NCBI GenBank assembly: GCA_018141785.1
Contig: CP073341.1
Coordinates: forward strand, 879,118-943,117
Length of the DNA stretch: 64,000 nt
DNA from: Candidatus Paraprochloron terpiosi LD05
GTDB taxonomy: Bacteria > Cyanobacteriota > Cyanobacteriia > Cyanobacteriales > Prochloraceae
Direction of reading: 5' to 3'
Part shown: piece by piece, positions 4,498 to 25,669 of the stretch
Position numbering within the stretch: position 1 is the stretch's first letter
How the letters are laid out: the number at the start of each line of letters is the position of its first letter
Notes under the pieces: generated by a model
Databases searched by the model: none
Seen by the model: only the letters and a program-made list of their open reading frames with translations
What the model was told of the DNA's origin: nothing
Position numbers and translations under genes: made by a program

Positions 4498-4737
4498 TTG
4501 AAAGATAAGAGAAAAAAAACAAAACCCAATCTTTCCAGGTTACCAAAATTAGAGATACCTTCTCGATATCCTCTTTTCACCAACCGTTTTCGGGAAGATT
4601 GTCGTTGGTGGCACAGAACCGACAAACAAAAAGCCGATAAAGTATTCGATCTCGTCACAGCAGTCATGAAAGACCCCTTCCACAGTGTCGGATACTTTCC
4701 TACTAACTGCTTGTTACAAGGAACGGTAATATGGTAG
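4498..4737 (+). pseudogene. YoeB/Txe-type toxin remnant
   Basis: FREDCRWWHRTDKQKADKVFDLVTAVMKDPFHSVG resembles the YoeB N-terminal half (W.DY.YW...DKK...KI..LI.D..R.PF.G.G). The catalytic C-terminal half is replaced by unrelated sequence. Confidence 0.45.
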
Positions 4738-4804
4738 CAATAATTAGATTGAAAAAAAGAGGTTTACGAGACGTGGGTTTATGCTATAGTAGATTTTTTT
4801 GATT

Positions 4805-4832
4805 AAACCACAGAAGCGCAGAGGTGCAGAGA
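4805..4832 (+). repeat. CGCAGAG-type repeat element abutting a start codon
   Basis: The sequence aaaccacagaagcgcagaggtgcagaga is followed directly by ATG at 4833. Confidence 0.7.
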
Positions 4833-6299
4833 ATGAGAACTACTGAACTAGCTACTCTAGCAACTGATATAATGAGCAAAAGTAGCTGCGAATATGGAGA
4901 TATCAGGTTATGCAACTATCGTACTCAAAACCTGACGGCACGGGATCGCTCCCTAGCTAACCTTTCTGACAACGTCAGTTCCGGTTTCGGGGTGCGAGTA
5001 CTGAAAGACGGGGCTTGGGGTTTTGCAGCTAGTTACAGCTTGACAACAGCTGAGGTAAAGAGAATAGTTGCTTTAGCTATAGAAACCGCCAAAGGTAGTG
5101 GTCTCTCTAACCAAGAACCTGTACGGTTAGTTCCTGTCCCAGCCTATCAAGATAAGTATACCACACCCATAAAAATTAACCCTTTTGAAGTCTCTATAGA
5201 AGAGAAAGCCGAGTTGCTCCTACATATTAACGAGAAGTTGTTGGCTTTTGGGGAACGGGGGATTAAAAAAGCTTATTCCTTCCTGCGGTTAGGGAAGGAA
5301 GACAAGACTTTTGCTTCTACAGAAGGTTCCCTCATAGAACAGATAATATACCGCAGTTATCCCGGGTTTGGTTGCACAGCTTTGGGAAACGGAGACGCTC
5401 AAAGTCGCAGTTACGATCGTCCTCCTTTAAACTTAGGTTACGAACATATTGATAAGTCCGATTTATTAGCTAATGTAAATAGGGTAGCCGAAGAAGCCAT
5501 CGAAAAAGTCCGAGCACCAGACGGTCCTAGTAATATACACAGTAATATTATTCTCCAACCCACGAACCTATGGCTCACGATCCACGAGTCCGTAGGACAC
5601 CCCACAGAACTAGACCGGGTTTACGGTTATGAAGCCAACTTTGCTGGAACTAGCTTTGCCACAACAGAGAAATTGGGTAAATTGCAATATGGAGCACCCT
5701 GGATTAATTTGGTAGCCGATCGCACTCAACCAGGGGGACGAGGAACCACAGGTTATGATGATGAAGGAGTGAAAGCACAACGGTGGTATGTGGTGAAAGA
5801 GGGGATATTAGTAGATTATCTCACTGATAGAGAGACTGCCTATCGTTTAGGTAGAGGAAGTAGCAACGGTAGTGCTTATGCTGATAATTGGGCAAGTCCA
5901 CCTATGGTGCGCATTCCTAATTTGGGGTTAGAACCAGGAGTTCCAGGAGGGAGTCATACTGCGACTTTAGAGGAGATGATTGCGGATACAGAAGAGGGGA
6001 TTTTAATCGACGGTATGGGGAGCTTTTCTATCGACCAACAGCGACGCAACTTCCAGTTTGGCGGGGATGCTTTTTGGCAGGTTAAAAAGGGTAAAGTGGT
6101 GGGGATGTTGAAGAATGTTACTTATCATAGCAATACTGTTGATTTTTGGAACAGTGTCGATGCCATCGGCCCTAGGACAGAGTTGCAACAGTGTGGTACT
6201 AATATGTGTGGTAAAGGGGAACCTATGCAACTAGCCCAAATGACCCATGGTTGTGTACCTGTGCGGGTGAGGGATATTAAAATTGGTCTATTTTCATAA
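4824..6299 (+). CDS. TldD/PmbA family metallopeptidase
   Basis: It has the HESVGHPTELDR metal-binding motif and GGD..F family tail. The GTG at 4824 lies inside a repeat, so ATG at 4833 is the more likely start. Confidence 0.85.
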   Translation: MQRMRTTELATLATDIMSKSSCEYGDIRLCNYRTQNLTARDRSLANLSDNVSSGFGVRVLKDGAWGFAASYSLTTAEVKRIVALAIETAKGSGLSNQEPVRLVPVPAYQDKYTTPIKINPFEVSIEEKAELLLHINEKLLAFGERGIKKAYSFLRLGKEDKTFASTEGSLIEQIIYRSYPGFGCTALGNGDAQSRSYDRPPLNLGYEHIDKSDLLANVNRVAEEAIEKVRAPDGPSNIHSNIILQPTNLWLTIHESVGHPTELDRVYGYEANFAGTSFATTEKLGKLQYGAPWINLVADRTQPGGRGTTGYDDEGVKAQRWYVVKEGILVDYLTDRETAYRLGRGSSNGSAYADNWASPPMVRIPNLGLEPGVPGGSHTATLEEMIADTEEGILIDGMGSFSIDQQRRNFQFGGDAFWQVKKGKVVGMLKNVTYHSNTVDFWNSVDAIGPRTELQQCGTNMCGKGEPMQLAQMTHGCVPVRVRDIKIGLFS

Positions 6300-19160: not shown

Positions 19161-20438
19161 ATGAAACAAGAATTAATTGATACCTGCGTTCACTGCGGCT
19201 TTTGTCTTGCCACCTGTCCCAGTTACAGAGTAATAGGGAAAGAAACTGACTCTCCCAGAGGTAGAATTTATCTCATGAACGCCATTAATAAAGGTGAAGT
19301 CTCTTTTAAAACAGCTGCTACAGAACATTTCGATTCTTGTTTAGGATGTCTTGCTTGCACCACTATTTGTCCTGCTGGTGTAGAATATGATAAACTAATA
19401 GCAGCCACTCGTCCTCAGGTAGAAAAGAATCAACGTCGCAGTTTGGGTTCTAGATTAATTAGAAGCTTAATCTTCAATCTTTTTCCCTATCCCGATCGCC
19501 TACGGTTCCTACTTCCTTCCTTCTGGTTCTATCAAAAATCAGGTCTGCAAAAGTTGGTTAACTTAACTGGTTTCCTGCCAAAAATTTTTCCTTCTTTAGC
19601 TGCCATGGAGTCTGTTTTACCCACCATTGATTTCAATTCTATCGAGTATAATTTTCCTGAAATTATCCCAGCTCAAGGAACAAAACGCTATGGAGTGGGA
19701 GTAATTTTAGGTTGCGTACAGCGTCTCTTTTTCTCCTCAGTAAACGCAGCCACTGTGCGGGTTTTAACTGCTAATGGCTGTGAAGTTGTCATTCCACCAA
19801 ATCAAGGCTGTTGCTCTGCTTTACCCGCCCACCAGGGACAAGAAGCACAGGCAAAAACATTAGCAAAAAAGATGATTGATAGCTTTGCAGGAAAAAAATT
19901 AGATGCTATAATTATCAATGCAGCTGGTTGTGGTCATACCTTAAAAGAATATGGTGCTATATTAGCTGATGACCCACAATATAGTGATAAAGCAGTAGCA
20001 TTTGCAGCAAAAGTCAAAGATATACAAGAGTTTCTTGTGGAAATAGGCATGAGTGCAGAACTTGCTCCCTTAACAGAGGAGCCACTAACTATAGTATATC
20101 AAGACGCCTGCCATTTACTCCATGGACAAAAGATTAGTTTGCAACCCAGGCAGTTATTGCAGCAAATCCCCCGAGTTAAGCTGAAAGAACCGAGAGATGC
20201 AGCAATATGTTGCGGGAGTGCAGGAGTGTATAATTTGTTGCAACCCAAAGTAGCTGATGAACTGGGTTCGCAAAAGGTAAGTAATTTGTTAGCTACGGGG
20301 GCGGAATTAATTGCTTCCTCCAACCCAGGTTGTACATTGCAAATCAATAAACATTTGGGCTTGCAGGGTAATGTAACCCCCTTATTGCATCCTGTGGAAT
20401 TGTTGGATTATTCTATTAGAGGTATTAAACTTCCGTAG
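19161..20438 (+). CDS. glcF: Glycolate oxidase iron-sulfur subunit GlcF
   Basis: It has two ferredoxin-type clusters (CVHCGFCLATCP, CLGCLACTTICP) and two CCG cysteine-rich domains. Confidence 0.85.
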   Translation: MKQELIDTCVHCGFCLATCPSYRVIGKETDSPRGRIYLMNAINKGEVSFKTAATEHFDSCLGCLACTTICPAGVEYDKLIAATRPQVEKNQRRSLGSRLIRSLIFNLFPYPDRLRFLLPSFWFYQKSGLQKLVNLTGFLPKIFPSLAAMESVLPTIDFNSIEYNFPEIIPAQGTKRYGVGVILGCVQRLFFSSVNAATVRVLTANGCEVVIPPNQGCCSALPAHQGQEAQAKTLAKKMIDSFAGKKLDAIIINAAGCGHTLKEYGAILADDPQYSDKAVAFAAKVKDIQEFLVEIGMSAELAPLTEEPLTIVYQDACHLLHGQKISLQPRQLLQQIPRVKLKEPRDAAICCGSAGVYNLLQPKVADELGSQKVSNLLATGAELIASSNPGCTLQINKHLGLQGNVTPLLHPVELLDYSIRGIKLP

Positions 20439-20482
20439 GGTGCACGCTAAATCCCTAAGTCGCACTATAATTGAATTAATAA

Positions 20483-22153
20483 ATGGAAAGTCACCTTCCG
20501 ACTATGGTTTCTCAATTGTCAGCACCAACGAAAGCGGAAATTATCTATCCTGATAACGACAGCAAACCTATGGGGGCGACTCGTTCTGGGCGAAAAGTCG
20601 CGGCTTAATAGCCAAATGACATAACCCCAGGCTAGGTATTTTGTACCTTGACAACTAAATCAGGAATGTTGGTGAGGAGCTGGTCAGCAATCAGTCTTCC
20701 AAGTCCAACCGCTTAGGGGATAAGCGAATCTCTATCTGCCCACACGCAACTGTGAATTCAAGCAGGCGATAGGGGTTAGTCTCCGGGGCGTGAAGCTGGG
20801 AACAGGGCGGAATCAGACACGAAAGTGACCCTGCCTAATGCCGGAGAATCCATGGTCAACAGGTATCCTAGAAATAGGTACGCACTCACCGGAAAAAGCG
20901 TCTAATTTGTAGGAGTACAGCGTTTAGTTTGGGGGGAGACCTCCTTAATGGGCAACAAGAACCGATAACCAAAACCCTGCTGCGTTTTGCATAGGATAGC
21001 AGCATTCCTAGGGGGTCGGTAGGCGAAGTGGTGAGACCTAAAGATTCGGAACAATTTCTGATTTGGAACGAGGAAAAACGAATGGTTCTTTCTAAGCGGG
21101 GTGGTACCCGGAGAGGGAGGGCAGACATACCTCTATCGAGACCATTCGGATAGGACGCGGGAACGAAAGCCACGATGCTAAACAATTGCCCGCAATGTGT
21201 TGGAGCTAATTTCTATCCAAAAAGGTGACGCCTAGGCTGAAAATATGCTGTATACCACCGTGGAGACACGGATGAGAGGATAACCTAGTTCCGAATTTGA
21301 GGTCTGGGTAAGACGACAGCCGAGTAGGAATCATTTTCAAACTCAGGTTCCTGTAAAACCGAGTAAGAACCAGTAAAACTGATGCTGGATAGGACAGGCA
21401 AAGATTGCCACAACCTGACGCACCAAACTAGATAGAGGCAATCAACGGATTTTATGCCCTTTGCGGTAGGTTTCAATCCACAGGTCATAGGAGCCGTGTG
21501 AGGTGAAAGTCTCATGCACGGTTCTGAAAGGGAGCTGGGGTGGGCGACCACTCCTTCGACCCGAACCGAATAACACCATTCAGTTTCGCTGGATTTTAAT
21601 TATTCAGCAGAATTTAGACTGGCTCTTAGCTGAAAATGCTAATGCATTTGTGGCTGGAGACTTATTTTGGTATCCTATTGAGGGAAAGAATACCATAGTC
21701 AATGCCCCGGATGTGATGGTAGTATTAGGGAGACCAAAAGGGGATCGTCTCTCCTATAAACAGTGGGAAGAAGACGAAATCGCTCCCCAAGTGATGTTTG
21801 AAATCCTTTCACCCAGCAATACCGGCAAAGAGATGGCTCAAAAACTGCTCTTTTATGATCGCCAGGTCGTGAGGGAGTACTATATTTACGATCCCCATCG
21901 CAATGAGTTACAAGGCTGGTTGCAAGGAGAGTACGGCTTAGAGGACATTGAGTCTATGGCAGACTGGGTAAGTCCCCTGTTAGGTATTCGCTTCTCCCTA
22001 TCCAAAGAAGAATTACAGATTTATCGACCCGACGACAAAAAGTTTCTCTCCTACATAGAGATTAGTCAGCGAGCAGAGGAAGCCGAACAACAATTAGAAC
22101 AGGAGCGAAAACAGACTAAAACCATGGAGGAGTTGTTAAATCAATACCGCTAG
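20483..22153 (+). CDS. Uma2 family endonuclease gene split by a group II intron (exons 20483-20573 and 21561-22153)
   Basis: Exon 1 ends ...IIYPDNDSKPM. Exon 2 continues EPNNTIQFRWI...EILSPSN. Joining g(20573) to cc(21561-2) gives an Ala codon and the canonical Uma2 PMAE motif. Confidence 0.75.
20574..21560 (+). mobile_element. ORF-less group II intron
   Basis: Domain V (gagccgtgtgaggtgaaagtctcatgcacggttc, 21491-21524) is followed by a domain VI-like helix, and the 3' end is ...cgac. The 5' end is GGGCG rather than GUGCG. CCATGG at 20850-20855 can pair with the last exon bases CTATGG. Confidence 0.75.
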
Positions 22154-22303
22154 CTTGCAGAGAATTACAGTAAATCCTCTCAAGGTGCGGCTCTGTTTCC
22201 TGCTCGGGAGCGGCGTAAGCCAAACATAAGCAGGAACAAGGTTCCCGGGACAGCGTCTCCGATAATCTAAACCACCGAAAGGGGCAGAAAACGGATAAAC
22301 GTT

Positions 22304-22328
22304 CCCCCAGCATCGCGGATGCCGGGGG
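22304..22328. repeat. 25-nt palindromic mini-element, copy 1
   Basis: The sequence is cccccagcatcgcggatgccggggg, giving an 11-bp stem with one mismatch and a GCG loop. It lies inside intron domain I. Confidence 0.8.
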
Positions 22329-22876
22329 TTACCGAACCTTGATAACTGAATAAACTATGAGAGTGAGGACACAGTCAGAAATTGTGCAACCAAGCCTCTC
22401 CCATGAAGGAATCATGTGAATCCTTATCTGGCCACAGTGAGATTAATCATCAGGCTGAAGCTGGCAGCAGGGCGGAACCGGAGCTATCGAGCGGTTCGAT
22501 GGTAACGCCGCTAATAGGGAGAACACCGGGATAACTTACATGAATCATCTACGAAAAGACCTAAGGATTAACACTGCCAAACCGTGTATCGCAGAAAAGA
22601 CACCGAAAGAAACTCGTAAGGGAAAGCTTGAGGCCACTTACATTCCTGAGTTGGTGATAGGTCAATTGATGAGTCCCAAGGGTTCGTAACAATAGTTCAT
22701 TCGGAACGAGTAAAAACTCGCTCAACTTCCATCAAAACAAGGGATTCCAAGCCCTGATATGTGAGATGGTGGGGTCGCCCGATTAACGGCCTACCGGAAG
22801 AGCGAGGGTAAGAGAAGGCGTAACTGCCTGATGGTTTCTACAGAGAAGATACCCAATGTAATTATCAGAGCGACTA

Positions 22877-24629
22877 ATGAAGGTCAAAACTGTGAATATC
22901 ACTAACCAGACTCCAATCGAATACCGCAGTTTAAAAGCCCTGAGACTCCACCTAGCAGCATTCCTGCTAACGGGGAAGATTGGCCGGAGAACTGACGATG
23001 TCTGGAAAAACCTGCCATGGAAGAAATTCCGGCAACATGTATTTCGGTTACAGCGGAGTATCTTCAAAGCGCAAAAAGAACAAGCAAAAGCTAAGGTCAA
23101 ACGTTTACAACGACTCCTACTACAGAGTCGTGCAGCTCAAGCTCTGGCCGTCAAACAAGTAACACAGCTAAACCAAGGGCGTAAGTCCCCCGGAGTTGAT
23201 GGTAAAACAGCGCTTTCTCCCAAGGAGCGTCTAGTGTTGTGCCAAAGGTTGAACAAGCATTGGTACCTCTGGAAACACCAACAACTGAGAAGGGTAAATA
23301 TCCCCAAGCCAAACGGCAAAACAAGGGGATTAGGCATCCCGACAATGGCCGACAGGGCATGGCAAGCATTGCTCAAATTAGCAGCCGAGCCAGCCTACGA
23401 GGCAACTGCCGGAGAAAGGAGCTACGGCTTCAGACCCGGACGCTGTACTGCGGACGCACAAAAGCTCATTTTTAATAACCTAAACAAGAGCAATAATGGC
23501 AAAGATAAGCAGATTCTGGAAACTGATATCAGCAAATGCTTTGACGAGATAAACCACGAGGTAATACTCGAAAAAGTGGTCTTGCCAAAAGAAGCTTTAA
23601 AGGGGTTAAAGAAAGCCGTAAAAGCTGGCGTCCGTGGTGAATATCCCTCCAGTATGAAGGGTACCCCCCAAGGCGGGGTTATCTCACCCCTACTGGCCAA
23701 TATCGCTCTAGATGGATTTGAGAACCTAGGGTCAGACCAATGGAAAAAGAGTCGCCGAAATGGGACTCTCATAAGGGGTATACGTTACGCAGACGATGCG
23801 GTCTTTATCTGTAAACCCGGAGCTGACACCAAGAGGCTACGGGAAGATATCGACGAATTCCTAAAGTTCAGAGGGCTACGAATTAACGAAACTAAGACTA
23901 AGGTGAGTAAAGCTACGGAAGGATTCAATTTCCTGGGGTGGCGCTTCCGTGTCAACTCCCGTGGGCTCTTTAAGTCCACACCGAGCTCCGAGAATTATGC
24001 GAACATCAAGGCCAAGGTAAAGGCCACTTGGAAGAACGGCACACCCACGGAGGCTCGCCTGAAAAGGATAGAGTCACAAGTCCGAGGGTGGAGGCAATAC
24101 CATAAAAACTGCGATATGAGCAAGCACTCGCTATGGTCGCTCAATCACTGGGTATGGCGTAAGCTGAGGGCTGAAAAACGCAGGATGGCAATTAAGGAAG
24201 CAACTCGAGCAAGACGTCTGGCAATCAAGGGTAAACCCCCCGGCATCGCGGATGGCGGGGGCGGCTAAACGCCAGCTCACATCAGAGCAGATTAAGAAAG
24301 CTTTTCCTACAGTTTCCTGGAAAGTCAATAACCACGTGATGGTTAAAGGTGATGCTTCACCCTTCAATGGGAATATTTCCTATTGGGTCGGTCGCAACTC
24401 TAAACTGTATAGTGGCCCAACCGCTAACGCCATTAAACGACAGAAGAATATATGTCCGCATTGCAACCGTAAGTTCATGGAGATAGATGGTGCCGTGGAG
24501 TTGCACCACATTGACGGCAACCATAACAACTGGAAACGTAAGAATTTAGTTGCTCTCCATCGGGAATGTCACCAAGCGCAAGCAATACATCGCAAGCGCA
24601 TTAAGGACGGACTCGTAAAGCGCCGTTAG
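22877..24629 (+). pseudogene. Intron-encoded reverse transcriptase/maturase/HNH protein, frameshifted
   Basis: The RT block with YADD (IRYADDAVFIC) and the X domain are in ORF 22877-24268. The HNH domain (CPHCNRKF..HHIDGNHNNW..LHRECH) is in the +1 ORF 24252-24629. The frames switch at a 25-nt palindrome. Confidence 0.8.
24236..24260. repeat. 25-nt palindromic mini-element, copy 2 (inside the IEP ORF)
   Basis: The sequence is cccccggcatcgcggatggcggggg, flanked by TAAAC on both sides. Its length (25, or 34 with flank) is 1 mod 3, matching the observed +1 frame change. Confidence 0.8.
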
Positions 24630-24778
24630 GAGCACCTGAGCTGTATGAGGTGAAAGTCTCACGTACAGTTCGTAGGAGAGGGGCGAGGCGGCAACGTCTC
24701 CCTCGACTCTAATAATCGCTACCATAGTGGAGTTAGAGTTAATCAGAGCAGTATAACAAAAAGTTATCTAAGAGATAA

Positions 24779-25669
24779 ATGACAACGGAAAACAGCCGTC
24801 TAAGAACCGAATTCTTAAACACACAGGTCATCACTCGTGACACAGGTAAGCGGTTAGGAGTGGTGAAAGAACTGTTGGTGGATGTTGACCAACGGGAAAT
24901 CGTAGTTTTGGGACTCCGGGACAACTTCCTTTCTTTAACCGGAATGGCGAAATATATGTACCGAGACAGGATCGAAAAAAGTGGTGACGTAGTGCTGGTG
25001 GATTCCGAAGATGTGATTGAAGACATCGACGTGGATGTTTACAGCAAACTCATCAATAGTGAAGTTATCACGGAAACCGGGGAACCTTTAGGTCGGATTA
25101 GGGACTTTGTCTTCAACATTGACGATGGGAAGGTTTATTCTCTGATTATAGCTTCCCTGGGTATTCCCCAAATCCCCGAGCAGTTAATCAGTACCTACGA
25201 GTTGCCCATAGAAGAAATAATCAGCAGTGGTCCGAACCGGGTGATTGTTTTTGAGGGTGCGGAAGACAGACTTACCCAGTTAACGGAGGGTATTTTAGAG
25301 CGATTCGGAATCAGCAGACCCGTTTGGGAACGGGAGCAAGAAGACGAATTTGATTCTCTGAATACTGTTCGACCGGAAAATCAATTACCTACAGGTATCC
25401 CCGTGCGCGCTCCCCAAAAGCAACAACCCGTAAAGACTCCTGTCAGACAATGGGAAGAAGAAGAGTGGGAAGAGGAGGTTCCGGCAGCACCCCAAAAGCG
25501 GAAAGTTCTCTACCAGGATTACGAAGATGAGCGATATGAGGACTACCAGGATGAGAATGTGGATCAGGATGCGTGGGATGATGAGGTAAAATCTGAGCCT
25601 TACAAGGGACCACGTATAAGTATTCCCGAGAAGAAAAAAGCTCCTGAGTATGAGGAGGAAACTCGTTAA
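24779..25669 (+). CDS. PRC-barrel domain protein with an acidic C-terminal tail
   Basis: It has two PRC-barrel-like units (VITRDTGKRLGVVKELLVDVDQREIVVLGL and VITETGEPLGRIRDFVFNIDDGKVYSLII) followed by an E/D/W-rich tail. Confidence 0.65.
   Translation: MTTENSRLRTEFLNTQVITRDTGKRLGVVKELLVDVDQREIVVLGLRDNFLSLTGMAKYMYRDRIEKSGDVVLVDSEDVIEDIDVDVYSKLINSEVITETGEPLGRIRDFVFNIDDGKVYSLIIASLGIPQIPEQLISTYELPIEEIISSGPNRVIVFEGAEDRLTQLTEGILERFGISRPVWEREQEDEFDSLNTVRPENQLPTGIPVRAPQKQQPVKTPVRQWEEEEWEEEVPAAPQKRKVLYQDYEDERYEDYQDENVDQDAWDDEVKSEPYKGPRISIPEKKKAPEYEEETR

Follow-up and report, generated by a model that had tools for sequence, protein, structure and literature searches.

Mohr, Ghanem and Lambowitz described the TeI3 introns of the cyanobacterium Thermosynechococcus elongatus, a family of group II introns without an open reading frame (ORF) (Mohr, Ghanem & Lambowitz 2010, PMC2882425). 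TeI3 originated by ORF deletion, shows diversified exon-binding sites (EBS), forms twintrons and is mobilized by the "driver" intron-encoded proteins (IEPs) of other copies; ORF-less introns of cyanobacteria are both spliced and mobilized in trans by such drivers (PMC2882425). ORF-less introns of bacteria are rare and nearly always co-resident with IEP-encoding relatives, and the chloroplast-like introns of cyanobacteria do enter host genes (PMC4424553). The TeI3 family is the closest precedent for the element described here, a 993-nucleotide (nt) insert at positions 20574 to 21566 on the forward strand of a window of 64,000 nt from Candidatus Paraprochloron terpiosi LD05 (contig CP073341.1), where it splits a gene of the Uma2 family. 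An original prediction for this locus proposed an ORF-less group II intron inserted in sense orientation into coding Uma2 sequence, a reading now backed by a syntenic intron-free orthologue, a match of domains V and VI in Rfam and covariation between EBS and exons. The element is probably a non-autonomous, IIB-like intron of a recently mobile family, and its exons are presumably joined with the help of a maturase/reverse transcriptase (RT) acting in trans. A full-text literature search found no paper on group II introns in Prochloron.

The two parts of the split gene, once joined, match the Uma2 family (PF05685, E = 3.7e-16 in a Pfam search), which confirms the proposed interruption of a Uma2 gene, with a first part at 20483 to 20573 and a second part ending at 22153. 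The closest homologue of the joined protein is the contiguous Uma2 protein of Prochloron sp. SP5CPC1 (225 amino acids, 91% identity). The gene for this orthologue is uninterrupted and stands in the same gene neighbourhood as in the window: FAD-binding GlcE-like, GlcF-like, Uma2, PRC-barrel and, on the opposite strand, purM. Its empty site (locus L002) reads CCTATGG/CGAATAAC; in a wider view, the orthologue has ...CAACCTATGG/CGAATAACACC..., and the window has ...CAAACCTATGG followed by the insert GGGCGACTCG ... CGACCCGAAC and then by CGAATAACACC.... Since only the register from 20574 to 21566 recreates the orthologue's empty site, the insert comprises exactly this segment, which begins with GGGCGACUCG and shows no similarity to an IEP. 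The 3' boundary at 21566/21567 agrees with the end of the Rfam alignment at 21566. A shifted 5' boundary (GGGGCG or GGCGA) is ruled out by the empty site and by other copies of the intron, in which six distinct upstream flanks all end directly before GGGCG.

With these boundaries the spliced protein shows the junction PMA-NNT, which is found in 15 of 15 aligned homologues. The 3' end at 21560 and the 987-nt insert of the original prediction are therefore 6 nt short; that boundary seemed plausible because the reading frame is kept there. The PMAE motif that was expected from it (junction PMAEPNN) finds no counterpart, as "EP" is absent from all 15 aligned homologues. A 3' terminus consisting of domain V/VI and ...CGAC had also been proposed, of which the domains stand (RF00029 at 21489 to 21566, 58.8 bits, gathering score 40) and the terminus does not: the A of this motif is the branch point at 21559, and the real end is ...CCGAAC. 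The junction of exon 1 and intron, including GGGCG, is reproduced in two independent assemblies from the Sequence Read Archive (SRA), with 100% (L118) and 99.3% (L117) identity, and is therefore not a sequencing error. Both of these Logan contigs (L117 and L118, from SRR18788998 and SRR14292612) stop exactly at window position 20597, 24 nt inside the intron, and two further contigs (L004 and L005) begin 26 to 28 nt ahead of the end of a second intron located downstream. Contig ends at both introns would be consistent with both being repeats in that genome.

Exon 1 (20483 to 20573) is delimited by an alignment of 15 protein homologues and, at its end, by the L002 empty site. The true start of Uma2 is probably at 20504, because the homologues begin at the methionine encoded there. 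Exon 2 (21567 to 22153) ends in an early stop in comparison with the orthologue, caused by a 1-nt deletion close to the 3' end. At window positions 22140 to 22160, compared with L002:5500-5525, this deletion is accompanied by several substitutions (GTGATCGCTTCGGAG versus GCTAGCTTGCAGAG) and leads to an earlier TAG. The ratio of nonsynonymous to synonymous substitution rates (dN/dS) of Uma2 against the intron-free orthologue is 0.255; as this is close to the 0.12 to 0.22 of the neighbouring genes, Uma2 gives no clear sign of decaying into a pseudogene.

A scan with the sequence of domain V (DV), covering one genome per species, returned 111 stretches, mostly unrelated introns sharing DV alone. 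Nine of these stretches derive from the Prochloron sp. chromosome OZ240666.1, and all but one of the nine (L114) contain whole-intron relatives. The chromosome carries five full-length ORF-less copies of 962 to 970 nt, with 81 to 83% identity to the window copy, besides diverged, partial and nested copies of the family. Five family copies are mutually 99.8 to 100% identical, four of them at full length and L055 over the 470 nt covered (its 3' half); near-identical copies are located at no fewer than three different sites (L068, L019 and L107/L094). The combination of traits known from TeI3, near-identical copies at different sites with matching EBS and intron-binding sites (IBS) in a genome with intact IEPs, is likewise found for the family in OZ240666.1; the genome of the window copy itself was covered over 64 kb. 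Like the window copy, some relatives lie in the sense strand of host genes. Removal of the intron at L019:3047-4016 restores an RHS/YD-repeat ORF of >1,170 amino acids, and removal of those at L107:2231-3199 and L094:2586-3554, located in two copies of an insertion sequence (IS) transposase ORF, restores 283 amino acids. Metagenome scans with the 5' end and the 3' end of the family gave zero matches, and the GGGCG family appears so far only in Prochloron genomes.

The 5' terminal GGGCG (20574 to 20578) agrees with the consensus GUGYG at 4 of 5 positions, with G replacing U at position 2. It recurs in 7 other copies at 6 sites as well as in the two SRA assemblies. The noncanonical 5' end had been noticed before and is real, but it is not a private change of the window copy, since it is fixed across a mobile family. 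All copies with recovered ends start with GGGCGACUCG and end with ...CGACCCGAAC, except for nested copies at L109, which end with ...CGACCCCGAAC; the exon base preceding family copies is T, C or G. The canonical start GUGCGAC is found in other introns with the same DV and in IEP-encoding copies of the type of the second intron. The movement of group II introns requires excised, catalytically active RNA. Because GGGCG is fixed in a family that moved recently, it should suit both splicing and reverse splicing under this mobility mechanism. A 5' end with G at position 2 would be functional, an inherited family trait rather than damage. The circularly permuted group II ribozymes, which are catalytically active, also show GGGCG instead of GUGYG as their conserved 5' splice motif, so that group II chemistry can proceed with G at position 2 (Roth et al. 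2021, PMC8637638). In these ribozymes D6 precedes D1 and circles are released; the window element, in contrast, is flanked by exons, has its domains in the normal order from D1 to D6 and spreads like a retroelement.

The exon-binding sites connect each copy with its own insertion site. EBS1 of the window copy, GCAUAG (20989 to 20994), consists of the six loop bases ahead of GAUAGCAGC in the hairpin CCCUGCUGC...GAUAGCAGC and pairs at 5 of 6 positions with IBS1, CUAUGG (20568 to 20573); G20573 opposite G20989 is a mismatch. Over 7 sites, 40 of 42 positions of EBS1 pair with the last six bases of the respective exon, compared to a mean of 24.9 with permuted exons. Permutations equalling the real assignment occur solely among three copies with identical EBS1. 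EBS2, UUUGU (20906 to 20910), belongs to a family-variable segment and shows a 5-bp complementarity to IBS2, GCAAA (20562 to 20566); in 5 other copies this segment and the exon vary together. Among the copies listed, 6 of 8 have an EBS2 segment complementary over 5 to 6 bp to their own exon, 6 to 13 nt upstream of the splice site. Without the window copy this amounts to 5 of 7 copies (4 of 6 other sites), with no match in L068 and a match of 4 bp only in L029. EBS3, G21028, pairs with C21567, the first base of exon 2, and an EBS3/IBS3 pair is present in 7 of 7 copies in three types (G-C, U-A and A-U).

This EBS3-IBS3 pair replaces the delta-delta' interaction of the IIA type, and EBS3 follows EBS1 after 34 nt. 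IIB introns, RmInt1 for example, typically have EBS3 a few tens of nucleotides downstream of EBS1, and the segment from 20574 to 21566 can be classed as IIB-like (chloroplast-like) in architecture. The motif CCATGG (20850 to 20855), originally proposed as EBS1, does not have this function: it is invariant among copies with wholly different 5' exons. Its last five bases, CAUGG (20851 to 20855), are instead proposed to form, together with CCUAAAG (21037 to 21043), a motif resembling a tetraloop receptor. The motif is invariant in all copies and flanked by a helix of GAAUC (20846 to 20850) and GAUUC (21043 to 21047) in which 5 of 5 positions are paired; its designation as a tetraloop receptor draws on its resemblance to the 11-nt GAAA receptor.

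DV (21491 to 21524 in the RF00029 alignment) is identical in every family copy and forms a 34-nt hairpin that carries a triad of the AGC type and a GNRA loop (GAGC...GAAA...GUUC). Domain VI (DVI; 21529 to 21563) is built, according to RF00029 and a prediction of the distal stem, from a basal GGG/CCC pairing, a distal 7-bp stem capped by a GCGA loop and the bulged branch-point A21559. This residue is located in the Rfam bulge at a distance of 7 nt from the intron's 3' end, which reads AAC; pairing in the middle of the stem is poor. In the 5' part, CUCGUUC (20580 to 20586) is complementary at 7 of 7 positions to GAACGAG (21066 to 21072), and this helix may close domain I; its strands are invariant in the family and show no covariation. 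A probable domain II hairpin at 21079 to 21148 (CGAAUGGU.../...ACCAUUCG) is predicted by both the minimum-free-energy and the centroid fold. The fold of the family alignment contains 14 predicted pairs with compensatory changes. RNAfold gives a z-score of -1.5 for domains II to IV, in which the boundaries of domains III and IV are approximate.

A global RNAalifold fold was rejected, as it does not represent a correct group II fold; the pairs that it forms between the 5' GGGCGA and DVI's 3' strand are regarded as an artefact of energy minimization. The complementarity itself exists between GGGCGA at 20574 to 20579 and the DVI 3' strand at 21557 to 21562 (UCG-A-CCC, with the branch A bulged), and it is extended by the G at position 2. 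It is probably fortuitous.

On OZ240666.1, the region L109:2299-6013 (chromosome positions 3,696,001-3,704,000) contains nested GGGCG-family copies. A full copy at 4576-5883 is inserted into another one at position 840 of the latter, and additional partial copies adjoin on the upstream side. EBS1 of the inner copy (CCUCUA) pairs perfectly with UAGAGG of the host intron. Domain I of this copy (L109:4576-5883) and of L029:6281-7420 contains short inserted repeats with inverted repeats of the type GTAGGATGCGTTA...TAACGCATC, which look like miniature insertion elements tolerating or targeting intron loops. L114 (positions 1,960,001-1,968,000) combines the DV of the window intron with a 3' end like that of the second intron (...GUCGACUCUAAU), has no nearby RT and may represent another ORF-less intron type.

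The second group II intron of the locus (22186 to 24713, forward strand, GUGCGG...CUCUAAU) encodes an IEP and is likewise delimited by an empty site in L002; it was inserted 13 nt past the ancestral Uma2 stop. This intron of ~2.5 kb has its own domain V/VI at 24636 to 24713 (RF00029, 59.5 bits, gathering score 40). Its IEP (22877 to 24629) shows the Pfam domains RVT_N, RVT_1 and GIIM and an HNH-like C terminus. In comparison with the intact 582-residue protein P0121, to which both halves are colinear with 89 to 90% identity, the frame changes once, through a single 13-nt insertion at 24239 to 24251; the sole RT/maturase of the window is thus frameshifted, as had been stated from the start. A 25-nt palindrome of the form CCCCC(A/G)GCATCGCGGATG(C/G)CGGGGG occurs twice in the second intron, at 22304 to 22328 in domain I and at 24237 to 24261 in the IEP ORF, compared to 0.07 matches expected by chance. 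The frameshifting insertion lies within the copy in the ORF.

Related genomes contain numerous intact IEPs of 574 to 589 amino acids that are 76 to 89% identical to the broken IEP of the window. OZ240666.1, which harbors the GGGCG family, encodes at least three identical copies of such an intact IEP. On the same chromosome, L121:1-4354 shows two copies of the second-intron type joined head to tail without a spacer (...CUCGACUCUAAU/GUGCGGCUCG...), both with the same 589-residue IEP.

The absence of an IEP from the Uma2 intron, already part of the original prediction, is borne out by the lack of any detectable RT or IEP remnant; tblastn searches of domain IV with two IEPs gave chance-level matches only. 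Having no RT/maturase of its own in domain IV, the intron is non-autonomous by definition. The Uma2 intron shares an identical DV with IEP-encoding introns in Microcystis, Crocosphaera and Trichodesmium, and the rest of the RNA is dissimilar. These and other cyanobacterial introns with the identical DV, including L008 (starting with GUGCGACUCGUUCUG), were discarded as ORF-containing parents because they have nothing else in common with it, and so was L114 in Prochloron, which shares the DV and lacks an RT.

A multistep history and splicing mechanism can be proposed for the intron. It would have entered codon 31 of Uma2 by reverse splicing in sense orientation, after the split from the lineage of Prochloron SP5CPC1. 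In the pre-mRNA the element would fold into the ribozyme, with IBS2, IBS1 and IBS3 paired with EBS2 (20906 to 20910), EBS1 (20989 to 20994) and EBS3 (21028), and the branch-point A21559 would attack the junction at 20573/20574. Ligation of the exons is predicted to give the RNA junction CCUAUGG/CGAAUAAC (...GCAAACCUAUGG/CGAAUAACACC... around the splice point) and a Uma2 protein of 218 to 225 amino acids reading ...PMA-NNT.... A maturase/RT of another intron elsewhere in the genome presumably assists in trans; such a helper is proposed because the Uma2 intron encodes none and the adjacent IEP is frameshifted. Given the recent spread of the family, it is likely that the window copy still splices.

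The nature of the helper allows a further, more speculative version. The GGGCG introns, as a Prochloron-specific family that has lost every trace of its ORF, may be spliced and mobilized by an RT/maturase of a clearly different intron family, of the type found 620 bp downstream, in which case the change from U to G at position 2 would be adaptive, modifying how the 5' splice site is handled, rather than neutral. This version is possible and can be put forward only tentatively. If true, the genome of an obligate symbiont would keep many degenerate introns in host ORFs dependent on one shared trans-acting splicing factor.

Several observations weigh against assisted splicing of the window copy. 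The mismatch between G20573 and G20989 is the sole mismatch at position -1 among the 7 sites and could weaken or shift the choice of the 5' splice site. Because the alanine codon of PMA requires G20573, either the intron entered a near-cognate site or EBS1 changed later. The 1-nt deletion at the 3' end of Uma2 removes the last seven residues (DRFGELQ), which are kept by many homologues, and this loss may mark the onset of decay. No intact IEP was found within the 64-kb window, and an IEP-encoding intron that could be the parent of the GGGCG family is missing from the fetched loci, which sample one related genome in a few stretches of 8 kb. The RNAs of the two introns of the locus share only short patches of 74 to 91% identity, for which reason the Uma2 intron was rejected as a deletion derivative of the second intron, and the latter is not an obvious cognate partner. 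Finally, the Rfam models for D1 to D4, applied to 20400 to 24800 with permissive thresholds, match neither the Uma2 intron nor the IEP-encoding second intron as a control. Covariance models had been named as a check of the folding of all six domains; DV and DVI are matched, and the missing match for domains I to IV says little because the control intron gets none either.

These points can be read in another way, with a real intron that is a dead copy at a near-cognate site and Uma2 as a young pseudogene tolerated as a dispensable member of a multi-copy family. The unique G-G mismatch, the missing and broken IEPs and the shortened C terminus fit this scenario, and so do the 74 private substitutions of the window copy; redundancy is plausible in view of a second Uma2 paralogue nearby in the related locus L001. 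However, both exons are open in frame and the dN/dS resembles that of the neighbours. None of the private substitutions falls in the first 40 nt, DV or DVI, and many lie in the region of domains III and IV; a high number of private changes is expected in the sole copy sampled from a different genome. Pairing with the exons is retained by EBS2, EBS3 and five of the six EBS1 positions, and a dead copy is on balance unlikely. Splicing without any intron-encoded maturase, whether as self-splicing or aided by host factors (the mode suggested for the stand-alone ORF-less intron C.te.I1 of Clostridium tetani), would fit a domain IV without ORF remnants and the want of a cognate IEP-encoding parent among the fetched loci, and an independent ORF-less bacterial intron is known as a precedent (PMC4424553). 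The recent spread of the family to new sites nevertheless needs a reverse transcriptase, the genomes bearing the family also hold many intact group II IEPs, and a parent is easily missed in the few stretches covered, which renders this explanation improbable. A reading of the two parts as separate genes, or of the insert as an assembly artefact, has a negligible chance of being correct. The ORF finder lists them separately on the forward strand, at 20483 to 20608 (41 amino acids) and 21503 to 22153 (216 amino acids). The relative SP5CPC1, in contrast, has a single contiguous orthologue in the same gene neighbourhood instead of the independent genes that the original prediction had named as its possible refutation; the junction is repeated in both SRA assemblies and the insert shows the characteristic features of group II introns. 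Trans-assisted splicing of a non-autonomous intron thus stays the preferred explanation.

In comparison with described systems, the Prochloron family resembles TeI3 in being cyanobacterial and IIB- or chloroplast-like, in consisting of ORF-less derivatives of ~0.8 to 1 kb that proliferated within a genome, in its diverged EBS matching their own exons and in its intron-in-intron nests. Both genomes encode intact IEPs in other introns, the trans action of which was shown in T. elongatus. TeI3 has remnants of the ORF termini and a close ORF-containing parent (TeI4), whereas neither was found for the Prochloron family. The copies of T. elongatus are mostly intergenic, in contrast to the window copy and at least two other Prochloron copies in the sense strand of ORFs. 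The 5' end GGGCG further sets the Prochloron family, known from sequence alone, apart from TeI3. Trichodesmium, also a marine cyanobacterium, contains many group II introns, some in protein-coding genes and some as nested twintrons, which makes splicing necessary for the host genes to be expressed, but these belong to a different intron family and their splicing was shown by RNA data (PMC4649490). C.te.I1 is likewise a bacterial group II intron that lacks an ORF and has an unusually arranged 5' splice site. It differs in that it is present as a single copy, in a genome without any IEP, and is spliced at a point 8 nt upstream of its GUGYG (PMC4424553), whereas the Prochloron family has its boundary exactly at GGGCG in every copy and resides in IEP-rich genomes. 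The rarity of bacterial group II introns in host ORFs, emphasized in the original prediction, holds for bacteria generally but much less for cyanobacteria (PMC4424553).

The window intron is a real and fairly ordinary cyanobacterial case, and the understanding of group II intron function is unchanged by these findings. For annotation, the ORFs at 20483 to 20608 and 21503 to 22153 should be merged into a single Uma2 gene that contains an intron (20574 to 21566); gene callers will miss such cases in Prochloron, the RHS-repeat gene and the transposase being further examples. The family adds, after Thermosynechococcus, a second cyanobacterial lineage in which ORF-less introns have spread, here into host ORFs. 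It also represents a natural test of the near-universal U at position 2 of group II introns, as all members carry G and have nevertheless spread recently.

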